DNA of 36,774 nucleotides, taken from contig JBBSWX010000052.1 in the NCBI GenBank assembly GCA_038046065.1, positions 1 through 36,774 of the forward strand, read 5' to 3'. The position numbers were made by a program, and so were the translations under genes. The notes beneath the pieces were generated by a model, which was given only the letters and a program-made list of their open reading frames with translations, did no database searches and was not told the origin of the DNA. Below, piece by piece: positions 5,726 to 36,774 of this stretch (position 1 is its first letter; each line of letters opens with the position of its first letter). The DNA comes from Candidatus Micrarchaeota archaeon. Lineage in GTDB: Archaea > Micrarchaeota > Micrarchaeia > Norongarragalinales > UBA97.

Positions 5726-6258
5726 GGGGCTTCGCTTCCATCATAATCGCGGCAATGGTTCTCGCCCTTTCGGTGGCTACTGTCGGAATGCAGCTCGCTG
5801 CGGGCGCGGAGCTAGATTCGCTGAACGCCAAGTTCGAGGCTGACCAGGTGGGCTGGAGGCATGCGGACGCGCGCGCCTTCTATTCCGCTGCCGTCACGGA
5901 CGTGGTTGTCGACTCGGCTTACTACGCGTGCGGCTGCGGCGTGAACGCGCCATCCAACTTCAACAATTCCTTGGCGGCGCTCTTGCCAATTTACTTCCAG
6001 AACTCATCCCGCGCCCTATCTACGCGCGCCGTCACGGTGAACGCCTCGCTCTTGGGGCTTCCATCAGTGGGGCTGGGAAGCTGCAATTCCACCTTCAGCT
6101 TTTCATTCAACTACACCGTTACGGCCAACTCGTCGAACGCCCGCAAGTTTTCAGTGGTGAACGAGTCGCGCGCAGTAACGCTCTTCAAGAACTCCACCGC
6201 GCTCGCCGTGAACGCAACTGGCGGCATTCCATTGCGGCTAATCGTCACCTGCGGGTAG
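5722..6258 (+). CDS. class III signal peptide protein (pilin-like), heavily sequon-decorated
   Basis: ATG 5722 (inside track ORF 5713..6258) gives MRG/FASIIIAAMVLALSVATVGM. I counted nine N-x-S/T sequons by hand. Confidence 0.6.
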   Translation: MRGFASIIIAAMVLALSVATVGMQLAAGAELDSLNAKFEADQVGWRHADARAFYSAAVTDVVVDSAYYACGCGVNAPSNFNNSLAALLPIYFQNSSRALSTRAVTVNASLLGLPSVGLGSCNSTFSFSFNYTVTANSSNARKFSVVNESRAVTLFKNSTALAVNATGGIPLRLIVTCG

Positions 6259-6280
6259 CCTTTTGCATCAACCCTCTCCT

Positions 6281-6290
6281 TTTTAAATAA
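6281..6290 (+). promoter_or_regulatory. TATA box for the Tyr-rich protein gene
   Basis: TTTTAAATAA sits in an AT-rich spacer about 60 nt upstream of ATG 6352. GGGGGG lies just before the start codon. Confidence 0.45.
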
Positions 6291-6351
6291 GTAACTGCAT
6301 AGTAGTAACATTAAATAGTTGTTTGGCGGCCGTGTGGCCGGGGGGATTCCA

Positions 6352-7146
6352 ATGTCGCTTTCCAAGATTGCCGGGCTTGCCGGCGTTGCCGTGTCCGTTC
6401 TTTTGCTTTTGGCTGCGTTCACCCCCACTGCCGGTGCGTACACGCCTGCAGCGTTCTCGCATGCTAGCGCTTCTCAAATCTCCAACGTGCGTGGCGCTAA
6501 CGGCTATTACTCTCCCTCTTTCAGTGACATGAAGTTCGCCAGCAACCCTTGGCAGGCTGGCAAGAGCATCTGGTGCGACGGTGGCCAGAGCAAGTACCGC
6601 TCGGGTTGCGTGGGCAGCGATTATTATGATTACGGCTCGTGGTCGCAGAACGGCTATTGCAGCGCGAAGGTATCTCACAACGACTACCGCTGCACTGGCG
6701 GCGTGTACGCCTACCCGTCAACTTCGGGCAGCTACGATTCGGGCAACTACGATTCGAGCCGCTACAGTTCCGGCACTTATTCCTCGCCTCGCGCTTCCGA
6801 CTCGAGCTTCGATTACTTCCAAAGCGGTTCAGGCAGTTCCAGCGCTTCGGGTTACGCCCGCACTGACTTTACTGGCGGCATAAGTAACAACTTCAACTCG
6901 TACTCTTACGTCAACTCGTTCAATGAGGATTCGTTCAACACCAATACTTACTCTTACGACTACAACGATGGCTATGGCAACTACGGCTATGGAAATTGCG
7001 GTTACGGCAACTGCGGGTACAGCAACTGCGGTTATTACGGCTGTGGCAATTCCTACTACTCGCTTGCGCCTTACTCGTACGCGTACTACTCGTACTCCGG
7101 CTATTCCACCAAGCCGTCCTATTACCTTTACTATTACCGCAGCTGA
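6352..7146 (+). CDS. secreted Tyr/Gly/Ser/Asn-rich low-complexity protein with GYGN(C/Y)GY repeats
   Basis: ATG 6352 gives the signal peptide MSLSKIAGLAGVAVSVLLLLAAFTPTAGA/YTP. The C-terminal half reads ...DGYGNYGYGNCGYGNCGYSNCGYYGCGNSYYSLAPYSYAYYSYSGYSTKPSYYLYYYRS. Confidence 0.7.
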   Translation: MSLSKIAGLAGVAVSVLLLLAAFTPTAGAYTPAAFSHASASQISNVRGANGYYSPSFSDMKFASNPWQAGKSIWCDGGQSKYRSGCVGSDYYDYGSWSQNGYCSAKVSHNDYRCTGGVYAYPSTSGSYDSGNYDSSRYSSGTYSSPRASDSSFDYFQSGSGSSSASGYARTDFTGGISNNFNSYSYVNSFNEDSFNTNTYSYDYNDGYGNYGYGNCGYGNCGYSNCGYYGCGNSYYSLAPYSYAYYSYSGYSTKPSYYLYYYRS

Positions 7147-8870: not shown

Positions 8871-9632
8871 TTGGCTTTTGCGCTGCGCGAGGTGCGCGCC
8901 AAGTCGATAATCTCCAAGTCGGGCTTGCCCGGCGCGGATTTAGTCATCAATCCTTACGTTGGTTGCATGCACGGCTGCAAGTATTGCTACGCGCGTTTTA
9001 TGAAACGCTTTACGCACCACGCCGAGCCTTGGGGTTGTTTCGTGGACGTGAAAGCTAACGCCCCCGACCTCGTGCCGCAAGACGCCACTTCGTTGCGCGG
9101 CAAGAGCGTTGTCGTCGGTTCCGTCACCGACCCTTACCAGCTTTTGGAGGCGCGTTTTCGCGTCACGGCACGCGTTCTCAAGAAGCTTATTCCATTGCAG
9201 CCAAAGCTGTGCGTGTTGACGAAGTCTGACTTGGTGGTGCGCGATGCCGACGTGCTCTCGCAGTTCGGCGATTGCACGGTAGCCTTATCAATTTCCACGC
9301 TCGACCCCGCGCTGGCGCACGAGTTGGAGCCCCTCGCGCCTCCCCCCGCACGCAGGCTTCGCGCGTTGGCCGCGCTTAAGCGCGCCGGCGTGCGCGCAGG
9401 GGAGGGCGTTGCGGACGAGTTTTGGTTCGAGAACCTCAACCTCTACCCTTCCATTGCGGGCGTGATGCGCGCCTTCGTGAAGCGCCGGGCGCCCGACGCG
9501 GCTGTTGTTTTCGATGCCGCCTATGCGAAATGCAGTCGTTATTGGCGGGGGGAGGCGCGCGCCGTGCGTGCCTTCTGCCGCGAGCGGGGGCTTGCCGCAA
9601 AGTTTTACTTCCACCACGCACGTAAAAATTGA
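8871..9632 (+). CDS. radical SAM protein, SplB/COG1533-like
   Basis: YVGCMHGCKYCYARFM contains CxxxCxxC with an aromatic residue before the third Cys. GSVTDPYQ is also present. The TTG start is 3 nt after the NlpC/P60 stop. Confidence 0.75.
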   Translation: MAFALREVRAKSIISKSGLPGADLVINPYVGCMHGCKYCYARFMKRFTHHAEPWGCFVDVKANAPDLVPQDATSLRGKSVVVGSVTDPYQLLEARFRVTARVLKKLIPLQPKLCVLTKSDLVVRDADVLSQFGDCTVALSISTLDPALAHELEPLAPPPARRLRALAALKRAGVRAGEGVADEFWFENLNLYPSIAGVMRAFVKRRAPDAAVVFDAAYAKCSRYWRGEARAVRAFCRERGLAAKFYFHHARKN

Positions 9633-13956: not shown

Positions 13957-14048
13957 GCCCCTGTAGCTCAGCGGTAGAGCGCCTGCATGGTATCCTTTTC
14001 CAAAGGCCTTAAAGCAGGAGGTCGCGGGTTCAATTCCCGTCGGGGGCT
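13957..14048 (+). tRNA. intron-containing tRNA, most likely tRNA-Thr (GGT) with an intron of about 20 nt at 37/38
   Basis: GCCCCTG-TA-GCTC-AGCGGTA-GAGC-G-CCTGC-[ATGGTA|TCCTTTTCCAAAGGCCTTAA|A]-GCAGG-AGGTC-GCGGG-TTCAATT-CCCGT-CGGGGGC-T. G1-C72 and U73 fit archaeal tRNA-Thr. Confidence 0.8.
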
Positions 14049-16310: not shown

Positions 16311-19300
16311 TCAAGCGCTTTTCAAGTATGCGTCAACGCCTTCAGCAATCGCCTGCGCCGCGGCCTTGCGGTATTCCGGCGAGGCGAGCTTGCGCGCGTC
16401 ACCCGCGTTCGACAGGTATGCAAGTTCAACGAGCACGGTTGTCGCTTCGGGCGCGCCCCACGCGTACAGCGTTGAAGGGTGTTGGCGCAATCCGCGGTCG
16501 TTCGTTCCCAGCGCGCCTACTAACCGCGTGTGAATTGCTTGCGCAAGGAGCTTGCACTTGGCAGTCAACGTGGTTTCAGCCCGCGCGTCCCAATAGTACG
16601 TTTCAGTCCCGCTTGCCGCCGGTGCGCCGCCGTTCGCGTGTATGCTGATGAACGCGTCGGCGCCTTTCTTCAACGCATTGCGCGCCGTGAATGAAGCGTC
16701 GCCAGCCGCGGGGGCATAGTCGGTGGCGCGCGTTTGCCTTACGGTATAGCCTTTCTGCTGCAGTAGCCTTCCCGCTTCGAGCGCAACTGCGAGGTTGACG
16801 TCGCGCTCGAGCACATTCTTGTCCACGATGCTAGTAGCGCCCTCTTTCGGGTGGCCGATGCCGTGCCCCGCGTCAAGCACTACCACCTTGCCGTTAGAGC
16901 CAGCAACTTCCGTTTTCTGGGGGATTGTCACCGCCGCGCCGGGCACTGCGCACGCGTGGCCGTAAAGCTCGCTGCAGCGCTGCTGCACAGCGTCGTAGTA
17001 ATAAGCGCCGTAGCCCTTGCGGTTGCATTTGCTTGCAGCAAAGTGCTTGAGGCACGCTTCGTTAAGCGCCTGTTTGAAGGGCATTCCCCCCTCCCACAGT
17101 TTCTTGGCGGTTGCCGCAGTTCCGCTGCCGCGGTTGTAGTACAGCCCCATGAACTGCAGGAGCTTCTCGCCCCGCAACCCTGCCTTGACGCCTGCGTTGA
17201 ATGCGGGAAGCAAGTGCCCCCGCACGCCGTTGCGAATGTTTTCTTCTAGGCTGCAGCCGCTCTTGGCGCAGGAAACAACTTGCATCGGCCCCTGGCGGTT
17301 TGGTGGGTTTTCGCGGCAGCCGCTTTCCTGCATTATCAGCGCCTTGACGAAATCTACGCTCACGCCTGCCGCCAGCAGTCCCGCCGTGCCCAGTTCTTTC
17401 TGCAGCAGCGCGTCGTACTTGTTGCACGCGGCAACTCTCGCGGGCGTGGTCGAGGCGATTGCGGGAACGCCGCCTACGGCAACCAGTTCGCTTTCCTTGC
17501 ACGCCATTCTCACTGAAGGCTCGTCGCCGAAGTATATTTGCAGCCCGCCGAACAGCGATTGCGCGATGCGCTCCAAGTCTTCAGGCTCGTTGAACGGCGA
17601 GCTTGGCGAGGCTATTGCCAGCGAAACAGCAGGTATGCTTGCGAGAGCGGCGCTCGACTCCACACCTGCCTTGCTCAAGGGCGCGCCTTTGGAAGTGGCT
17701 GCTTGCAGCTGGCTGAGCATTATTGCCGCGAGGCGGCGGGACTTTTCGTCCTTGAATTGCGCTGCCGGGGCGCTCTCGCTCGCGAATGAGAGTTCTAGCA
17801 TCAAATCTGCTTTCGCGCTTGCCGCGGTGTCGGCGCGCGCCTGCACGTTGGCTTGCGCCTCGCCGTTGCATTCTTCCTCGGTTACTGTGACTGCGGTTGC
17901 GCCAGTTTGCTGCAACAGTTGCGAGAGCCTTCCTGCAATCGTCATCGTCGCATCCAACTCTCCCGCTAGGGGAGGGGTGCACGAGCCTGCGTGCGCAACG
18001 TCTATCGCAATTACTTTGCCTTCCAACCCCGTGGCAGTTGTTTCTTCAGGCGCCATCGAGATGCTTGAAGTGCTTGAAGCGAGGGTTGCGCGGCACGATG
18101 GAATCACGCGCACAGCGCCAGCGTAGTGGGCTTGGTTATAGCTGTTGCACAAGCTGGAGATTGACGCCGTGCGGCCGGGGCTGGGTTCGTTTATGAACGC
18201 GCACTTGCCGTACTTGCTTTCAACCGCGTTGCCTGCGTACATTCCCACGTGCGTTATGCCTCCCCGTTTGTCGGTGTTCTTGAAGAAAACCAAGTCGCCG
18301 GGAACGAGTTCTTCCACGCGCGTGCCGACCGTGTACTGCTGCCTTGCCATGCGCGGCAGCGTCACGCCTAACTTTCGCATTACGCTTTGCACGAACCCCG
18401 AGCAGTCGGCTCCCGTGGAGAGGGACGTTCCCCCTTTGACGTAAGGCAGCTTGCCCACGTGCTTCGCCGCTTCCTGCACTACCGCGAGGCCGTCGGCGCC
18501 GCAAGCGCCTGTTGCAGTTGCCGCGGCGCTTTGCTTCACACGCGTTTCCAGGTAGCTCGTCGCGTCGTACTCTTCCCCGCAATCTTCCGGTTTGAGTTGT
18601 ATGTGCTCGACTTTGAGAGTTACTGGCACTTTATCGACGCGTTCGGGCAAGTCCAACAGGCCGAAACTCATGGTGCCTTTCACTTCGTCGAACGGAATGC
18701 TGCCGTCATCGCCCAGCTCGATGTCAGTCACGTCGGCGATTATGTTGAGCGTAGTCACTCCGCCTTCAAAGCCGTGTTGTTGGCTTGCGTAATTCGCCAC
18801 GTCGCCTTCAAACGCAGTGAGCGGCGAGTTTATCTCGAGGGGCGTAATGAGCGGTATTTTCAACGTCGTTCGTGGTTCTAGTTCGGTTACCGTGAGCGTG
18901 ATTTCTTCCGGCAGCTTCGGGAAGAACGCGTAAGCGTCCTCGCCGCCAGTGCCGCCTGCCTTGGGCGTGGCGGTTGTTTCAGGCGTGGGCGACGCGCCCG
19001 GCGCAGGAGTCGCTTGCCCTTGCGCGCGCGAGTTCTTTTCGTAATTTGCAACAACCGCTTCGGCCGCCTTGAATTTTTCAAGGACGCTTCCTTGCAGCGA
19101 GTCCGTTCTCGCGGCGTCGATTTCCGCGTTCAGCAACTGAATGAGGCGCGCCTTCTCACTTTCGCTCGCGCCGTTCTTCCTCCACGCGCTGTCGAGCCTT
19201 GCCAACAGCAGCGCGTACGCCATGGTTTCCTGAACGCGTTGTGCGGGAGTGCTGCTGCCGGAAGCTATTTTGAATAGTTGCGCGCCTGCCTGCGGGATGC

Positions 19301-20150
19301 CTGTCGCGCTGCCGCCTGCTTCGTAAGCGGCTGCCAGCACGTTTAGCGCGGCAACCTTGCTTGCAACCGTTCCCGCAGTCGCTTCTTGCGCAGTGAGCGC
19401 GGCGCTTGCCATCGCGTTGAACGCCGCTGCGGCGGGGCTGGACAGCCGCATTCGCGAAACTCGCCGGATGGCGTCAAGCGCAACTTCATTTTGCGGCAAT
19501 TCGCCTTGTTGCAATGCACTCGCATTCGCGAGGAGCGTGCTTGCGAAGTCTTGCGTTGAAAATATCACTAGCAGCGGCTGGAGGGCGTTTGGTGCAAAGC
19601 TGCCGGTTGTTTGCGCGCCTCCCGCGGCGGTCGTTTCAATTCCTTCAGGCATAGGAGGCGAAACCGAACCGTTTCCACCATTTACTTCCACTTCGTTCGC
19701 TTCGTTTTCCCACGCGGTTTTCTTCGTTGAAGCCGTTATCGTCGTGCTGCCGCCTGCGGGTATCTCGAGTTGCGCGATGCTAGCGCCGGGAATGGCTGCG
19801 GCGTTGCTCGCATAATCGCCGTATTCTACCGTGACGCTCGACGACTCGCCGCCGCCCGCGCCTTCAGGCAGCGTGGCTATCGCGCCAAGGCGCGTAGTCT
19901 CTTTGTTAGAATTGGATACTGTGACGCGCGTCGTCTCTCCTTCGCGCGAGGAGGTCACTGCGTGCAGCACGGTTACTCCGGGGGCGGGGGAGTGCGAGTA
20001 CGTAGTTATGTTGAACGCCGCGCCTGCCGCGGGCTGGAACCACTCAGGGTGCTTCACTCCTTGCAGGATGAGCGCGAGCAGCACGAGGAGCCCGAACGCA
20101 ATCACCAAGGCGCGCTTCCTGTGCGCATCGCTTTCCTTCGCCGCGGCCAT
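16311..20150 (-). CDS. membrane-anchored multi-domain murein hydrolase: NlpC/P60 + degenerate Amidase_3 + SLT lytic transglycosylase + Amidase_3
   Basis: N-terminal anchor KRALVIAFGLLVLLALILQGV. NlpC/P60: GADCSGFVQSV...GITHVGMY...HYAGAVRV (about nt 18105-18470). SLT: ALIMQESGCR...GPMQV...YYNRGSG (about 17090-17400). Amidase_3: VVVLDAGHG...ERDVNL...AFISIHANGG...VLVELAYLSN (about 16320-16895). Confidence 0.9.
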   Translation of the reverse strand: MAAAKESDAHRKRALVIAFGLLVLLALILQGVKHPEWFQPAAGAAFNITTYSHSPAPGVTVLHAVTSSREGETTRVTVSNSNKETTRLGAIATLPEGAGGGESSSVTVEYGDYASNAAAIPGASIAQLEIPAGGSTTITASTKKTAWENEANEVEVNGGNGSVSPPMPEGIETTAAGGAQTTGSFAPNALQPLLVIFSTQDFASTLLANASALQQGELPQNEVALDAIRRVSRMRLSSPAAAAFNAMASAALTAQEATAGTVASKVAALNVLAAAYEAGGSATGIPQAGAQLFKIASGSSTPAQRVQETMAYALLLARLDSAWRKNGASESEKARLIQLLNAEIDAARTDSLQGSVLEKFKAAEAVVANYEKNSRAQGQATPAPGASPTPETTATPKAGGTGGEDAYAFFPKLPEEITLTVTELEPRTTLKIPLITPLEINSPLTAFEGDVANYASQQHGFEGGVTTLNIIADVTDIELGDDGSIPFDEVKGTMSFGLLDLPERVDKVPVTLKVEHIQLKPEDCGEEYDATSYLETRVKQSAAATATGACGADGLAVVQEAAKHVGKLPYVKGGTSLSTGADCSGFVQSVMRKLGVTLPRMARQQYTVGTRVEELVPGDLVFFKNTDKRGGITHVGMYAGNAVESKYGKCAFINEPSPGRTASISSLCNSYNQAHYAGAVRVIPSCRATLASSTSSISMAPEETTATGLEGKVIAIDVAHAGSCTPPLAGELDATMTIAGRLSQLLQQTGATAVTVTEEECNGEAQANVQARADTAASAKADLMLELSFASESAPAAQFKDEKSRRLAAIMLSQLQAATSKGAPLSKAGVESSAALASIPAVSLAIASPSSPFNEPEDLERIAQSLFGGLQIYFGDEPSVRMACKESELVAVGGVPAIASTTPARVAACNKYDALLQKELGTAGLLAAGVSVDFVKALIMQESGCRENPPNRQGPMQVVSCAKSGCSLEENIRNGVRGHLLPAFNAGVKAGLRGEKLLQFMGLYYNRGSGTAATAKKLWEGGMPFKQALNEACLKHFAASKCNRKGYGAYYYDAVQQRCSELYGHACAVPGAAVTIPQKTEVAGSNGKVVVLDAGHGIGHPKEGATSIVDKNVLERDVNLAVALEAGRLLQQKGYTVRQTRATDYAPAAGDASFTARNALKKGADAFISIHANGGAPAASGTETYYWDARAETTLTAKCKLLAQAIHTRLVGALGTNDRGLRQHPSTLYAWGAPEATTVLVELAYLSNAGDARKLASPEYRKAAAQAIAEGVDAYLKSA

Positions 20151-31698: not shown

Positions 31699-32289
31699 CT
31701 ACCGTTCTGCGTACCGCGCGCGCTTTAGGATTTCTTCAGCGCGGCGCACCACGGACGTGCCAACGGGGAACTGCCGTTCGTAAGCTTTGCAGAAAGGCTT
31801 GAACAACGCTTGTTTCTCGCGCAGGGACTTGCGGTAGAGCAGCACGTCTTCCGCGCGTTCCTCGAGGCTGTCAGAAAATTCCGAGAGGCCGAAGTCTATC
31901 ACCGTAACCGCGGGCGTCCTGCTGGCAATGATGTTGCTCGTCGAATAGTCGCCGTGCACGATGCCAGCCGCGTGCAGCTTGGCGAGCGCAGTGCCGCTTG
32001 CGGCCGAGAGCGCCTGCAACTCTCTCGCATCCTCTTCCACGAGCCGTGCCATCAGCGTGCCTTTCACGAGCGAGAGCTGGAGCTCGCACTTTCTTTCGTC
32101 TTCCTTAAGCAGTTCCGGCACGGGCGCGCCGGCGGCCTTGGCTTTGCGGAGTATTCGCGCTTCGCGCCGCGTGCGTCGCGAGCGGAGGAGCGCGTCAAGC
32201 TGTGCGTCGCGGTATTTTTTCTTCAGGCGTTTCTTGCGCACGGTGGCGCCTTCTTTCGTTACGGTCGCCTCGGCGCCTTTCCAAGCCAT
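31699..32289 (-). CDS. bud32: Bud32/PRPK atypical kinase (KEOPS subunit)
   Basis: KGAEATV, KKRLKKKYRDAQLDALLRSRRTRREARIL, HGDYSTSN, and VIDFGLS. Confidence 0.85.
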   Translation of the reverse strand: MAWKGAEATVTKEGATVRKKRLKKKYRDAQLDALLRSRRTRREARILRKAKAAGAPVPELLKEDERKCELQLSLVKGTLMARLVEEDARELQALSAASGTALAKLHAAGIVHGDYSTSNIIASRTPAVTVIDFGLSEFSDSLEERAEDVLLYRKSLREKQALFKPFCKAYERQFPVGTSVVRRAEEILKRARYAER

Positions 32290-32293
32290 TTTC

Positions 32294-32998
32294 TCACTCT
32301 TGCACTTCGACAGCAGGGGGGCACACGCTGGGCATGCTTTCCTCGGCTTTCTTGGCGATGCTGTCGAGCACTTTCATTATCTCTGTGAACGGCACGGGGC
32401 CTTCACGCACGAGTTTGGGCGGGTAGCACCGCGTGTCGATGATTGTTGACGACAGGGTTTCCGTCAAGTCTCCAGAACTCAATATCAGCGGGACTTTGCC
32501 TTCAAACGCTTGCCGGACTTCCGACTCGCGGTAAATGGGTGGTTTATCCGACTCGTTCGCGCTGGTTGACGTGACGGGCTTGCCGCTCTCGGACGTTATG
32601 GCGCGCGCGAAGTGGTTGCTGGGAATGCGGAATGCGACGCCTTGCTTACTGAGCGCGTCAGGCAGCGAGGGCTTCTTGTCAACGATGAGTGTGAGCGGCC
32701 CTGGCATAAACGCCCTGGCCAGCTCTTCAGCCACGGGGTTTATTTCCGCGTATTCTTTCGCCATTCCCAAGTCTGAGACGATTATTGGCAGGGGCTTGCC
32801 TTCCGGCCGGCCTTTCAGTTCGTAAACCTTCGCGACGGCTTGCGGGTTGGTCGCGTCCGCACCCAGCCCGTAAGACGTTTCGGTGGGGAACACTATTACC
32901 TCGCCCGCGCTTATTGCCTTCGCCGCTTGCTCTATGCTGCGCGCGGCTTTTTCGCGCTCGCGCAAGTTTACCGTAAGCACTTTTGTTTTCATAAGCAT
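32294..32998 (-). CDS. sua5: threonylcarbamoyl-AMP synthase Sua5/TsaC (YrdC domain)
   Basis: VIVFPTETSYGLGADATN, KGRPEGKPLPIIV, MPGPLTLIV, AFRIPSN, and VTSTSAN. ATG 32998 is preferred over the track start 33097. Confidence 0.85.
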   Translation of the reverse strand: MLMKTKVLTVNLREREKAARSIEQAAKAISAGEVIVFPTETSYGLGADATNPQAVAKVYELKGRPEGKPLPIIVSDLGMAKEYAEINPVAEELARAFMPGPLTLIVDKKPSLPDALSKQGVAFRIPSNHFARAITSESGKPVTSTSANESDKPPIYRESEVRQAFEGKVPLILSSGDLTETLSSTIIDTRCYPPKLVREGPVPFTEIMKVLDSIAKKAEESMPSVCPPAVEVQE

Positions 32999-33180
32999 CA
33001 CGAGAGCATATGGCGTGGCAAGGTTTTTAACGGCACCCGACGCGAAGCCAATGCGTTTACGCTTGAGTCGGGCTTCGCGTCCCGTGCACGGGAACAATTG
33101 GTGCGCCGAATCAACCTGAAGCCCTGGCTCGAAAGCGGGGGTAATTCACTAGGCGGCAGGTCGAAGTTCATCAAGCCGCT

Positions 33181-33978
33181 TCATTCAGGGTAGTGGTCGG
33201 TTATAGTGCAATCGTGCAGTATTAGCGGTTGGGTACTTTTTCGTCCGCGCATGCTCCCGCGCGCAAGTCTGGGGGTTGGTTCGTCTTCGCCATACAGTAT
33301 TCCACTGCCGTGCTTCGCTTCTGCCGCGCGAATGATTTCGCGAAATACCTTCGCTTCGGTTTCTTTCCCCGTTAGCCGATACGCTAGGGTAAAACAGTTT
33401 TCCGTCGCGGCGCGCGCGACCCAGCCTATGCGGCGCACGAGTTCGTTGTTGACTGCTTGCTTGCGTTCGGCCGCCGGCAGCTCTTTTATGCGTGGCATCA
33501 GTTCCTTGCGCAGGCCGGCGTAGTGCTGCGCGTCGAGTGAAAGGCATAGCGCGTCGAGGTTTTGAGTGCGCTTAACTAATGCCTGCGGGGTATTTACGCC
33601 GCCGAGGTTCCAGAATGCGTGCACTTTGGCTTCAGGGAAGTGGCGTTTAATCACATTAGTTATTTCGTGCAGCCGGGGGTGTTCGGGCGGGTTTCCACCC
33701 AACGAATATGCGAAAATCAAGCCGGGGCTTGCGAGTTCGTGCATAACCGTGTTAGCCTTGACGATTCCGGAATGTTTGAGTTCTATCAGCGCTCGTTCAA
33801 ATCTGTTTACGTCCATTAAACTTCGTTCTTCGGGCATTGGTGCGAACATGCATTTGCTGCATTGGAATCCGCAGCCGTGCACGGGCTCCACGCCAACCAC
33901 GTTGGTTTGCGAGAGCCTTTCACGCAGTTCTTTCGCAGTCGCAACGCGTTTTTGCGTCCGTATTTGTGAGTTAGCCAT
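33181..33978 (-). CDS. radical-SAM-like protein, uncharacterised family, paralog B
   Basis: VHGCGFQCSKCMF (CxxxCxxC at about residue 35), SLGGNPPEHP (GGEP-like), and the C-terminus LILHDCTITDHYPE. The start is GTG 33987 or ATG 33978. Confidence 0.65.
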   Translation of the reverse strand: MANSQIRTQKRVATAKELRERLSQTNVVGVEPVHGCGFQCSKCMFAPMPEERSLMDVNRFERALIELKHSGIVKANTVMHELASPGLIFAYSLGGNPPEHPRLHEITNVIKRHFPEAKVHAFWNLGGVNTPQALVKRTQNLDALCLSLDAQHYAGLRKELMPRIKELPAAERKQAVNNELVRRIGWVARAATENCFTLAYRLTGKETEAKVFREIIRAAEAKHGSGILYGEDEPTPRLARGSMRGRKSTQPLILHDCTITDHYPE

Positions 33979-33987
33979 TCGAATCAC

Positions 33988-34788
33988 TTATTCAGGGTAG
34001 CGGTCGGTTATAGTGCAATCGTGCAGTATAAGTATCGCTTTCGCATCCAAGCCCTTAAGCCTGCCAGGAGCGCTTAGGATTGCAGTATCGATTACTAATT
34101 CAGCCGGGTTTCTTTTCGCCCCATTATTATTCGAGAAGGGTTTATAGTCCAGCTTGGCTTTAAACCCTGCTTTTTCTGCCGCGCGGGTTATACCCGCCGT
34201 GAAGATCGCTTGTTCCTTTTTTCTACCTGCGGTTGAAGTTATGACTCTGAACTCGTTTTTTGCTGCGGCTGCCTTCACCCACCGCAACCGTTCGGTTATG
34301 TATGCTTCAAAATCCGCTTTGTTAACCCCGTAAAGTCTTCGTATGCCTGCAAAGTGCGGCGCGTCAATCGATAAGATCAGTTCGTCTAGGCCTACCGTTC
34401 TTTTTTCGAGCTCTTGTTGGGTATTCAAGCCCGTCAGGGTCCAAAATGACTGGATTCTCGCAGTAGGAAACGCTTTACGGACGACTGCAGTCAATTCCGC
34501 CAACTGTGGGTTGTGCAGCGGGTCGCCGCGCATGGAATAGTGTACGTATACCCCTGGCGGTCGCGGGTCTATAACGTGCCGGGTGCGGTTTGGGTTGATG
34601 ATTCCCGCGTTTTTAATGGCGTTCAGCCTTTCCGCCAGCATTTCAGGCAGCATAAACTTACGCGGCGCGTCGGTAGCCCCAATAATGCATCGCTTGCACG
34701 CAACTGGACAGCCGAAAGTTGGTTCTATACCAAGGTCTCGCGTAGGTGCAAACTCCGTCAAGTTTCTAATTAACCCCTTTGCAGGCAT
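33988..34788 (-). CDS. radical-SAM-like protein, uncharacterised family, paralog A
   Basis: TFGCPVACKRCII (CxxxCxxC), SMRGDPLHNP, and the C-terminus LILHDCTITDRYPE. ATG 34788 lies 2 nt after the Kae1 stop. Confidence 0.65.
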   Translation of the reverse strand: MPAKGLIRNLTEFAPTRDLGIEPTFGCPVACKRCIIGATDAPRKFMLPEMLAERLNAIKNAGIINPNRTRHVIDPRPPGVYVHYSMRGDPLHNPQLAELTAVVRKAFPTARIQSFWTLTGLNTQQELEKRTVGLDELILSIDAPHFAGIRRLYGVNKADFEAYITERLRWVKAAAAKNEFRVITSTAGRKKEQAIFTAGITRAAEKAGFKAKLDYKPFSNNNGAKRNPAELVIDTAILSAPGRLKGLDAKAILILHDCTITDRYPE

Positions 34789-34790
34789 GT

Positions 34791-35801
34791 TCACCAAGTC
34801 ACCGTCGTCTTGTCTATCCTCAAGTTCTGGTCGGGGCGGCAGTCTTGCGGCACGCCGTTCGAAACGATTTCCTGCAGTCCCGTCAAGGCTATCATCGCGC
34901 CGTTATCCCCGGCGTACTGCGGGGGCACTACGGCGAAACTGACGCGTTGGTCTTCACACATCAACCCCAGCATTTCTGCGAGGCGCGCGTTTTGCGCAAC
35001 TCCACCGACGGCAAGCACTTGCTTCTTGCGCGTGTGGCACAAGCAACGCTCCGTCGCCTCCACTAGCATTGCGAACGATGTTTCCTGCACTGAGTAGCAC
35101 AACTGGCGCTTGTCACCCCCGCGTTCCGCGGCTTTGCGCACGGCGTTGAGCATGCCGCTGAAGGCGAGGTCAACGCCTTTCACCGAGTAAGGCAGTTCGA
35201 TGATGCTACCTTTCCATTGCGCGGCGTTCTTCATTATTCCCACCGCGTCGGGAGGCGTTACGCCCAGCAGCCGTCCGGCGTTGTCGAGAAAGTTGCCTAT
35301 CCCAACGTCGAGCGTCTCACCGTACACGCGGTAATGCCGCGATGGCAGCTGGCCTTCCAGCGCTGTAATTTGAGTGTTTCCGCCTGACACGTACACTGCG
35401 AGCGGGTCGTTCATTCCGCACGCCCACTTGCCCACTTCCACGTGCGCCACCGTATGGTTTACCGGCACGAGCGGTTTTTCCAGCAGGAGGCTCAGCGAGT
35501 TGGCGGCTGCGAAACCCACGTGCAGGCAGTGGCCCAAGCCGGGGCCTTGCGCGTAAGCTATCGCGTCGAGCTCGGCAGCATTCACGCCGGCTTGCGCGAG
35601 CGCTTCCCCCAAGGTTTTCTTGAATTTTCGCGCGTGGTGTTCGGCGAGCTTGCGGGGAATGAATCCCGTGCGGCCGGAGGGGACTTTAGCTATCGCGTTG
35701 GAAAGCACTTTCGTGTTGCGCGCGTTCACCTTGCCGCTGTCGTGCCTTACCACGCCGATGCCGAGCGAGTGCGCAGTGCTCTCGATGCCGAGTATCATCA
35801 T
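34791..35801 (-). CDS. kae1: tRNA N6-adenosine threonylcarbamoyltransferase Kae1
   Basis: MMILGIESTAHSLGIGVV, HTVAHVEVG, YVSGGNTQ, and GDNGAMIA. ATG 35801 is preferred over the track start 35894. Confidence 0.95.
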   Translation of the reverse strand: MMILGIESTAHSLGIGVVRHDSGKVNARNTKVLSNAIAKVPSGRTGFIPRKLAEHHARKFKKTLGEALAQAGVNAAELDAIAYAQGPGLGHCLHVGFAAANSLSLLLEKPLVPVNHTVAHVEVGKWACGMNDPLAVYVSGGNTQITALEGQLPSRHYRVYGETLDVGIGNFLDNAGRLLGVTPPDAVGIMKNAAQWKGSIIELPYSVKGVDLAFSGMLNAVRKAAERGGDKRQLCYSVQETSFAMLVEATERCLCHTRKKQVLAVGGVAQNARLAEMLGLMCEDQRVSFAVVPPQYAGDNGAMIALTGLQEIVSNGVPQDCRPDQNLRIDKTTVTW

Positions 35802-35940: not shown

Positions 35941-36528
35941 TCATCCTGTTGCTTTCAAAACCAGCACTGTCACCAACGCCCACGCGTTCAGCAAGAAGTG
36001 CGCCACGATGGCCGGCACTACCGTTCCGCGCAGTTTCGTTTCCCTTGCGAAAAGCAGGCCTGCGGCAAGCGCGCCTGCCACTTCCACGATGCTGCCGTAC
36101 GGCGCGTGCAGCAGGGCGAAGGCGATGCTCGGCAGTATTATTCCGAACTTGCGTTGCAAATACCCTCGGAAGAGAAGTTCCTCGGCGATTGGCGCGAGCG
36201 CGATGATGGCGAAGATTCCTGCGGTTTCCTGCTTGCGCAGCACGTCGGCTACTGCTTGCGTGTCATCCATCCCTACGGCGCGCGCCGCGATGCCGAGCGC
36301 GATGAGCACGGCGAGAAGCTTGAAGAAGAGCACGAGGCCGGCCTTCACTTCGGTAACGCTGATTTTCTTGAGGCCGAGCGTTTCCAGCGCCTTGGCGCGC
36401 GGTTTTTCCAGCGTTGCTAGCGACAAGGCGAGTGCGAGCATGGCGAGCGCGCCAGTCACTTCCGTCGAGGCGTTCGCCGAGATGACGAGCGCTATGGACG
36501 CGAGCCTAAAAACTATGCTTGCCGCCAC
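35941..36528 (-). CDS. CPBP (CAAX/Abi) family intramembrane protease
   Basis: PIAEELLFRGYL (EExxxR), FALLHAP (FxxxH), and IVAHFLLNAW (HxxxN). The start is uncertain (GTG 36528 or ATG 36441) because the frame stays open upstream. Confidence 0.7.
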   Translation of the reverse strand: MAASIVFRLASIALVISANASTEVTGALAMLALALSLATLEKPRAKALETLGLKKISVTEVKAGLVLFFKLLAVLIALGIAARAVGMDDTQAVADVLRKQETAGIFAIIALAPIAEELLFRGYLQRKFGIILPSIAFALLHAPYGSIVEVAGALAAGLLFARETKLRGTVVPAIVAHFLLNAWALVTVLVLKATG

Positions 36529-36774
36529 GCCGTGCTTTTCAGCGATCGCCCGCAATGCATCCATGTCGCAGGGGCGCCCATTGATTTGCACCGGCATGAT
36601 GGCTTTGGTTTGGGGGGTAATGCGCTTTTCAACGTCAGCTGCATCCAGCATGTGATCCGCGCCGCATTCGGCCAGCACCGGTGTAGCGCCCACCAAATGG
36701 ACCGACGCCGCAGAGGCGATGTAAGTGTGCGACGGAAGAATGACCTCATCGCCCGCGCCGATACCGACGGCCTT
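36529..36774 (-). pseudogene. DegT/DnrJ/EryC1-type aminotransferase fragment (partial at the window edge, 3'-truncated, in frame with the CPBP gene)
   Basis: KAVGIGAGDEVILPSHTYIASAASVHLVGATPVLAECGADHMLDAADVEKRITPQTKAIMPVQINGRPCDMDALRAIAEKHG follows the DegT pattern. It stops where xVIEDAAQA and the PLP-Lys region should follow. Confidence 0.65.

Follow-up and report, generated by a model that had tools for sequence, protein, structure and literature searches.

What are two genes of one small protein family doing inside an archaeal operon for N6-threonylcarbamoyladenosine (t6A), the modification at position A37 of tRNA? The question is raised by a contig from a metagenome-assembled genome of Candidatus Micrarchaeota (JBBSWX010000052.1, positions 1 to 36,774; "the window" below is this whole stretch of 36,774 nt), in which two genes that we call paralog A and paralog B (NCBI locus tags AABW54_03125 and AABW54_03120) lie between kae1 and sua5. 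A preliminary description, made from the sequence alone, took the two products for radical-SAM-like (S-adenosylmethionine) proteins and proposed that they carry out a new reaction on t6A or assist the KEOPS complex. Our analysis upholds the first of these proposals and argues against the second. We consider it reasonably probable that A and B are a lineage-specific, variable cassette of stand-alone radical SAM enzymes, and that their position reflects cassette insertion, exchange or differential loss of paralogs and not a conserved partnership with t6A synthesis. The open reading frames (ORFs) of the locus run in the order Kae1, A, B, Sua5, Bud32:

34791 to 35801, minus strand: kae1 (KEOPS N6-threonylcarbamoyladenine synthase), 336 aa; 2 nt separate its TGA stop from the ATG of A; matches Pfam TsaD (1.6e-64) and TIGR03722 arch_KAE1 (1e-109).
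33988 to 34788, minus strand: paralog A, 266 aa; predicted divergent radical-SAM-fold protein of a Micrarchaeota-only family; outlier of the contig in G+C content at third codon positions (GC3 0.53).
33181 to 33978, minus strand: paralog B, 265 aa, or 268 aa from an alternative GTG start at 33987; same family as A; annotated as "hypothetical protein" (AABW54_03120).
32294 to 32998, minus strand: sua5/tsaC-type threonylcarbamoyl-AMP synthase, 234 aa; matches Pfam Sua5_yciO_yrdC (5e-51) and TIGR00057 (6e-57).
31699 to 32289, minus strand: bud32 (KEOPS kinase/ATPase), 196 aa; starts 4 nt past the sua5 stop; matches TIGR03724 arch_bud32 (6e-47).

An ORF check returned exactly the coordinates of the preliminary description for all five genes, together with its gaps of 2 nt between the Kae1 TGA and the ATG of A and of 9 nt (ATG) or 0 nt (GTG) between the A stop and the start of B. 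The identities that it gave to the t6A genes are equally secure, as the Pfam, TIGR03722, TIGR00057 and TIGR03724 matches are unambiguous, and by these profiles Kae1, Sua5 and Bud32 are ordinary orthologs. A class I lysyl-tRNA synthetase (LysRS) is encoded further downstream of Bud32, and the wider neighbourhood is translation-related (LysRS and eIF2-gamma). From the 2-nt and 9-nt spacers we conclude that A and B are probably co-transcribed with kae1 and sua5; co-transcription with kae1 is no evidence of shared function.

The same operon in related archaea indicates how A and B came to stand there. In the nearest Kae1 relatives (L039 at 68% identity, L040 at 59%, L041 and L042 at 57%) kae1 is followed directly by sua5 with a gap of 27–57 nt, which bears out the earlier description of the two genes as inserted into a t6A operon. 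Bud32 comes after Sua5 in these relatives (the L039 contig ends within sua5), and an Rce1-like gene is found upstream of Kae1 in L039 and L041/L042. A Kae1 scan of genome contigs gave relatives of at most 45% identity, among them five Micrarchaeota or Marsarchaeota loci (L007, L011, L012, L013 and L017) where Kae1 is followed directly by Bud32 and no member of the A/B family occurs within 6 kb. The adjacency is absent at eight other Kae1 loci of related archaea, and the insert is found only in the window population and in one relative, L003. That population is represented by two further contigs (L043 and L044) that are 99.5–99.9% identical to the window and carry the same two genes without a single-nucleotide polymorphism (SNP) in A or B.

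Comparison with L003 shows what is peculiar about the insert. At the DNA level L003 matches the window with 88% identity as far as the kae1 stop; the match resumes ~40 nt before the cassette ends and continues beyond it. The flanking proteins are 85–98% identical (Kae1 93%, Sua5 97%). Between these flanks L003 holds one family gene, copy C (6247–6936, 229 aa, with a CX3CX2C motif), whose product is just as distant from A as from B (34% identity to each). The insertion is recent, lineage-specific and variable in both copy number (two versus one) and sequence, and by these comparisons the slot holds non-orthologous or long-diverged cassettes. Composition differs as well: GC3 is 0.53 in A and 0.59 in B versus 0.69–0.75 in the five flanking genes measured (contig mean 0.68, SD 0.06), while copy C has a host-like GC3 of 0.67.

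We then asked what surrounds the family elsewhere. Six independent contexts could be read, and none of them contains Kae1, Sua5 or Bud32. One member adjoins a ribosomal P1/L10/L1 cluster (L001/L002); another adjoins POR, riboflavin kinase and an intein-containing thiamine pyrophosphate enzyme (L004/L005); a third adjoins PadR and an ABC transporter (L035); a fourth lies between DUF1801 and Fic genes (L036/L037); a fifth adjoins a thioredoxin-like gene and a giant surface protein, with a second, partial family copy in tandem (L038); and the neighbours of the sixth, on the P0004 contig, are unannotated. All-against-all BLAST within 5 kb of the family members found no neighbour in common, and no mobile-element gene such as a recombinase was seen among the Pfam-annotated called genes beside them or in the scanned part of the window. 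Two unannotated upstream genes (L004 5163–5915 and L001 7477–7884) were considered as hidden paralogs or partners and proved unrelated. In L038 the two tandem copies lie at 1–285 and 305–1042; the contig end truncates the upstream copy, which is possibly frameshifted, as its C-terminal LLYDGT is in a different frame. L041, one of the Kae1-Sua5-Bud32 loci that have no insert, comes from the same sample as L038 at a similar GC content (0.53 vs 0.54), and if the two belong to one organism, its family copies stand away from kae1.

These surveys bear directly on the function proposed in the preliminary description. The check that it suggested, whether homologs co-localise with kae1 and sua5, found no linkage outside the lineage of the window and L003, and a role in t6A/A37 chemistry or KEOPS has against it both the six family contexts that lack a t6A gene and the eight Kae1 loci that lack a family member. 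A t6A link could still exist, since tRNA-modification genes are usually scattered; the positive evidence for it reduces to adjacency in one lineage.

What, then, is the family? A profile built from A and B was run by hmmsearch against 1.84e9 representatives of 50%-identity clusters (E ≤ 1e-3) and gave 29 matches. A and B are among them, and so, as weak outliers, are two canonical SPASM enzymes. The ~25 further family representatives are 185–314 aa long (E 1e-41 to 3e-5), and every member with a source name comes from Micrarchaeota, Micrarchaeia or Norongarragalina. Used as queries in word-indexed searches of 5.8e9 proteins, A and B retrieved nothing but themselves, and both metagenome scans for relatives found none. 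Nor was a member found in IMG/VR, GenBank phages or PLSDB plasmids, the phage and plasmid tblastn searches also being without a match. Neither Pfam nor NCBIfam has a model that A or B matches above threshold, in line with the earlier claim that no curated family covers them, and a literature search found no mention of the family or of the kae1-A-B arrangement. On these searches we regard the family as small, rare and uncharacterised, its members being putative minimal stand-alone radical SAM enzymes of ~230–300 aa that have so far been seen in Micrarchaeota only.

The sole match of the viral scan, L045, was rejected as a family member, being an unrelated phage SPASM enzyme. It is a 323-aa SPASM radical SAM protein (IMGVR_UViG_3300027887_000012, 6022–6993) that has the N-terminal "GIEPVHGCNLRCGHC" start in common with the family and resembles both the weak outlier P0029 and, by annotation, the best structural match in BFVD. 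It may be the nearest outgroup of the Micrarchaeota family.

Within the family, A and B are 33% identical across 263 aa (BLASTP, E 1e-44), in agreement with the paralogy claimed for them at the outset, and their sequences suggest two anciently diverged copies of one small family. Copies A, B and C are as distant from each other as copies from different Micrarchaeota (28–41% identity), and the neighbour-joining tree of the family is star-like, with bootstraps of 61% for A+C, 5% for A+B and 10% for A+B+C. Both paralogs contain the CxxxCxxC motif, the GGEP-like motif (SMRGDP in A, SLGGNP in B, of the type G-x-G-(D/N)-P) and the shared C-terminal LHDCTITD-x-YPE that had been noted; the common C-terminus, LILHDCTITD(R/H)YPE, comprises 14 nearly identical residues. 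The cysteine motifs are encoded as follows:

34687 to 34710, minus strand: CPVACKRC codons, the CX3CX2C of A (C27, C31, C34).
33850 to 33873, minus strand: CGFQCSKC codons, the CX3CX2C of B (C36, C40, C43).

NCBI annotates A as a 221-aa protein beginning at M46, which removes the cluster motif. As homology to B and to the family extends upstream of M46, the sequence supports 266 aa, not 221 aa, as the true form of A. Public gene calls also shorten copy C of L003 (198 aa versus 229 aa), and again the CX3CX2C is lost.

Of the 23 family sequences that span the cluster motif, 22 have CX3CX2C and one, P0023, has CX5CX2C. The N-terminal half is further marked by E-P-x-x-G-C-x3-C-x2-C, G-x-G-(N/D/E)-P, F-W-x-L-x-G-V and R-T-x-G-L-D, and the later part by L-S-L-D-x-H-H-Y-A-G, R-x-x-W-A-x-x-A-A-x-x-N, P-R-G and a C-terminal (I/L)-L-H-D-G-(T/S)...P. 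All of these motifs are intact in A, B and copy C, whose reading frames are full length. The only Cys conserved in the family alignment are the three of the cluster motif. In all, A contains four Cys, and the Cys of the "HDC" in A and B is Gly in most members and is therefore not a family-wide catalytic or cluster residue. The cluster motif had also been called atypical for lacking an aromatic residue before the third Cys: this holds for A and B, but several other members do have W or F there.

Assignment to the radical SAM superfamily comes from the family profile and from structure prediction. Compared with PDB sequences, the family profile matched radical SAM enzymes exclusively at E ≤ 0.16, the best being YydG/EpeE (6e-5), SpeY (3e-4) and CteB (6e-4), followed by QueE (E 0.015), BtrN, RlmN, NifB, anSME and MoaA; phmmer with A alone found no match among the same sequences. 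PF04055 is matched by 11 of the 27 family members at E ≤ 0.01 (best 1.5e-7). Two models of SPASM-type maturases, TIGR04317 and TIGR04311, are matched by 12 members (best 1e-9) and 7 members (best 4e-9), respectively, at scores far under their cut-offs of 380–400 bits. With A and B themselves NCBIfam and PADLOC gave no meaningful match.

AlphaFold with an alignment of 27 sequences returned a confident model (pLDDT, the predicted local distance difference test, 91.3; pTM, the predicted TM-score, 0.89), while a model from the A and B sequences alone was poor (pLDDT 55.7) and was set aside. The confident model consists of strand 1, the cluster loop, helix 1, five more beta/alpha units, giving (beta/alpha)6, and three C-terminal strands; CX3CX2C is located between strand 1 and helix 1. 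Foldseek against the PDB gave 54 matches at E ≤ 0.001; the 50 listed are without exception radical SAM enzymes, among them viperin (2e-7), DesII, SkfB, SpeY, PqqE, SuiB, BlsE, NifB, EpeE and BtrN. The best viral structural matches are phage SPASM radical SAM proteins. The conserved G-x-G-(N/D/E)-P and L-S-(L/I)-D align to the matching segments of YydG; many members, A (D) and B (N) among them, have Asp or Asn in place of the Glu.

The family profile, the 27-sequence model and Foldseek all point to radical SAM, as first suspected. The two families that the preliminary description had named as possible alternatives do not account for A and B: the NrdG model of glycyl-radical activases matches 4 of 27 members at best 1.7e-4, far short of its 126-bit cut-off, and QueE reaches only E 0.015 in the profile search of the PDB. 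As it had also stated, UPF0004 and TRAM are missing; there is no such Pfam or NCBIfam match, and the proteins measure 265–266 aa. A SPASM/twitch auxiliary cluster is presumably missing too, because no conserved Cys follows the core. By profile and model, then, the family appears to be a divergent radical SAM branch that arose from the SPASM/twitch clade as a minimal form with no auxiliary cluster.

This assignment suggests a mechanism. C27/C31/C34 of A and C36/C40/C43 of B would hold a [4Fe-4S] cluster in the loop that follows the first strand of a partial TIM barrel with six strands, and SAM would be bound via the G-x-G-(N/D/E)-P motif past strand 2 and L-S-(L/I)-D on strand 4. Reductive cleavage of SAM would yield a 5'-deoxyadenosyl radical that takes a hydrogen from the substrate, which may sit beneath the C-terminal beta-hairpin with its family motif (I/L)-L-H-D-(G/C)-T...P. 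In the model this hairpin resembles a SPASM/twitch hairpin whose cysteines, and with them the auxiliary cluster, would have been lost. Because that cluster is missing, a redox-neutral reaction (epimerisation, dehydration or a lyase reaction) appears likelier than a two-electron oxidation of the anSME or BtrN type. A conserved His pair that follows strand 4 could serve in acid/base catalysis, as could the His-Asp of the hairpin. As the nearest sequence relatives are SPASM-type maturases, our first guess for the substrate is a protein or peptide; our second is a nucleotide or sugar-like metabolite, the nearest structures being viperin, DesII and BlsE.

The 3' ends of A and B may record a further event in the history of the cassette. 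They form a direct repeat of 43 nt:

33990 to 34032, minus strand: repeat copy 1, the last 14 codons of A (LILHDCTITDRYPE), running into the stop codon.
33183 to 33225, minus strand: repeat copy 2, the last 14 codons of B (LILHDCTITDHYPE), running into the stop codon.

The copies are identical at 41 of 43 positions and spaced by exactly 807 nt, where chance would produce none. In the last 14 codons of A and B, 12 of 13 identical residues use the same codon, compared with 31 of 74 in the rest of the alignment (Fisher p = 7e-4). Copy C of L003 keeps the peptide and uses the same codon at only 6 of 11 (A) and 7 of 12 (B) positions. Because C keeps the peptide and not the synonymous sites, intragenomic gene conversion between the tandem paralogs, at what is their most conserved segment, best accounts for the near-identical 3' ends. 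Two other interpretations of the repeat were rejected: a cassette boundary or recombination site, as the synonymous sites are not kept in L003, and an embedded TATA-like promoter, as the TATAA within the repeat is missing in L003.

Several points weigh against reading A and B as a variable cassette of radical SAM enzymes with no conserved tie to t6A. Individually, A and B score 18.4 bits (E 0.0026) and 17.1 bits (E 0.0067) with PF04055 and do not reach the gathering threshold of 29.5 bits, and the TM-scores of the Foldseek matches are only ~0.5 (TMq). Cluster binding and SAM cleavage by A and B are predictions from motif and model, and the substrate class is a guess from distant relatives. The other family contexts that could be read number six only, several of them on short contigs. 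Slot and strand of the family gene are unchanged between the two sub-lineages, and it begins 2 nt past the kae1 stop in the window and 24 nt past it in L003; repeated occupation of the kae1|sua5 slot by one family, at 34% identity, could reflect selection for co-expression with Kae1, Sua5 and Bud32. Three equidistant copies in near-identical flanks could have arisen either by exchange with strains outside the sample or because an older array lost different copies in different lineages.

Four other explanations were weighed. One treats the kae1-sua5 slot as a hotspot for a conflict or defence cassette, with enzymes that make a viperin-like modified nucleotide or metabolite, or that modify a target over which the episymbiont competes with viruses or with its host; rapid turnover and horizontal exchange would follow. 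The hypervariable content within conserved flanks and the atypical composition of A and B fit this idea, as do the viperins among the top Foldseek matches in the PDB (E 2e-7, TMq 0.53, similar size) and the one family context that adjoins Fic-domain genes. Yet PADLOC, including its pVip models, and the NCBIfam viperin model gave no match, and the viperin TM-score is not above that of SkfB or EpeE. Mobile-element genes are also lacking among the annotated neighbours, as are family members in the three collections of viruses, phages and plasmids, and just two cassette states were sampled. We regard a defence role as unlikely, if the best of the alternatives.

The function first proposed, in which A and B are translationally coupled to Kae1 and either further hypermodify t6A/A37 by a new radical reaction or act as KEOPS accessory or maturation factors, now looks quite improbable. 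It draws on the common strand, on the short gaps past the kae1 stop and between A and B, on the translation-related neighbourhood and on a chemical precedent: radical SAM enzymes do act on A37 derivatives, as established for MtaB. Its strongest point is that L003, with flanks 88% identical, has a family member in the identical slot in spite of 66% divergence of the inserted sequence. The same comparison also tells against it: where Kae1 is 93% identical between strains, 66% divergence is not expected of a protein that works with a conserved machine. Six other family contexts are free of t6A genes, the closest Kae1 relatives (57–68%) have no insert, and in five other Micrarchaeota/Marsarchaeota Kae1 loci Bud32 comes directly after Kae1 with no family member present. 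Moreover, no RNA-binding domain (TRAM, THUMP or PUA) appears among the Pfam and NCBIfam matches of A and B.

A further idea would make the kae1-sua5 junction a cassette-exchange slot whose swapped, divergent minimal radical SAM enzymes are co-expressed with the t6A machinery and put strain-specific modifications on t6A/A37 or on KEOPS, for example in an anticodon-loop conflict with viral or host nucleases that target tRNA. If true, it would reconcile the tight coupling to kae1 with the extreme turnover of sequence; we hold it to be highly improbable. Finally, that A and B are hitch-hiking remnants or pseudo-enzymes devoid of radical chemistry and tolerated in an essential operon is scarcely credible, for against the sub-threshold Pfam scores, the missing aromatic residue before the third Cys, the replacement of the GGE Glu by D (A) and N (B) and the low GC3 stand intact family motifs in A, B and C, full-length frames, a confident fold prediction and several family members that do have W or F before the third Cys. 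That A and B lack SNPs in L043 and L044 is uninformative on selection, as these assemblies come from the window population.

We therefore keep the lineage-specific, variable cassette as the preferred reading. The remaining features of its surroundings begin with the gap that follows B:

32999 to 33180, minus strand: B-sua5 spacer, 182 nt; ~113 nt of it are missing in L003, including a 17-bp hairpin (33033–33049 / 33071–33087).

The ~113-nt stretch that bears this strong hairpin has no Rfam match and no second copy elsewhere in the window. A search of the 182-nt spacer for a relic of a third family copy found none, and the region yielded neither a known RNA family nor a convincing terminator. 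Within kae1, positions 35253–35268 carry 8 substitutions in 16 nt relative to L043/L044 (Kae1 residues 178–183), a patch that could be due to micro-recombination or an assembly artefact. Toward the right end of the window, 36544–36774 have no counterpart in the near-identical L043, 29 of the 37 SNPs relative to L043 fall in 36418–36541, and the ORF at 35941–36696 is a DegT-aminotransferase fragment fused to a CPBP/Rce1-like protease; the segment 36418–36774 represents either a rearrangement or a chimeric contig end.

Farther away, the window encodes a second, unrelated radical SAM protein at 8871–9632 on the plus strand (253 aa, PF04055 2.7e-10), directly after an NlpC/P60 gene (8337–8867, plus strand). 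It is closest to TIGR04470 ("radical SAM mobile pair protein B") and to the PA0069/Rv2578c family, far under the cut-offs, and is apparently short at its C-terminus; being PA0069/Rv2578c-like, it was ruled out as a member of the A/B family. The gene at 16311–20150 on the minus strand encodes a large murein-hydrolase-like protein of 1279 aa with NlpC/P60 and N-acetylmuramoyl-L-alanine amidase (Amidase_3) domains. At 13957–14048 on the plus strand ARAGORN calls a 92-nt tRNA-Asp with anticodon ATC, matched by the tRNA model of Rfam at 58.5 bits; the odd length and anticodon suggest a misread archaeal tRNA that contains an intron.

The present evidence opens no new t6A biology. What it does describe is a predicted radical SAM branch that has not been described previously, has no auxiliary cluster and is apparently restricted to Micrarchaeota. 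Micrarchaeota are DPANN archaea with reduced genomes, in which each Fe-S enzyme that is retained is presumably important. The family has had no Pfam or NCBIfam model, solved structure or literature, and one of the two genes is mis-annotated in GenBank such that the catalytic motif is lost. The locus also offers a clean natural case in which an essential operon related to translation tolerates a variable insert (34% identity within flanks whose proteins are 85–98% identical), and its variable slot is useful for thinking about gene movement in DPANN genomes.

Among known systems, the best sequence-profile relatives of the family are the SPASM/twitch maturases (YydG/EpeE, CteB, SkfB, anSME and the TIGR04317/TIGR04311 "metalloenzyme maturases"). 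Common to both are the E-P-x-x-G-C-x3-C-x2-C start, a GGE-like motif and a partial TIM barrel; in addition, the strand-4 I/L-S-x-D of the family aligns to ISYDEYH of YydG, and its C-terminal hairpin resembles the x-D-G-x-V-x-P turn of SPASM domains. Unlike these enzymes, the A/B family lacks auxiliary-cluster Cys and is 60–200 residues shorter, and no precursor peptide or target gene is conserved near its members. Viperin (RSAD2), viperin-like proteins and DesII are the top Foldseek matches (E 2e-7 to 7e-7) and resemble A and B in core size (~260–280 aa), in having one cluster only and in closing the barrel with a C-terminal extension; at 12–15% identity, TMq ~0.5 and a root-mean-square deviation of ~10 Å this likeness is structural only, and the viperin models of NCBIfam and PADLOC do not match A or B. 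MtaB/CDKAL1, the ms2t6A methylthiotransferase and the known radical SAM enzyme acting on t6A, has the radical SAM core and possibly a thematic link to A37 in common with A and B; A and B differ in lacking UPF0004 (the second cluster) and TRAM, in being ~170 aa shorter and in matching no MiaB/MtaB model. As for the operon itself, the canonical archaeal kae1-bud32 pair are direct neighbours in other Micrarchaeota, and in the clade of the window sua5 stands between kae1 and bud32; the placing of one or two radical SAM genes after kae1 is particular to the lineage of the window and L003.

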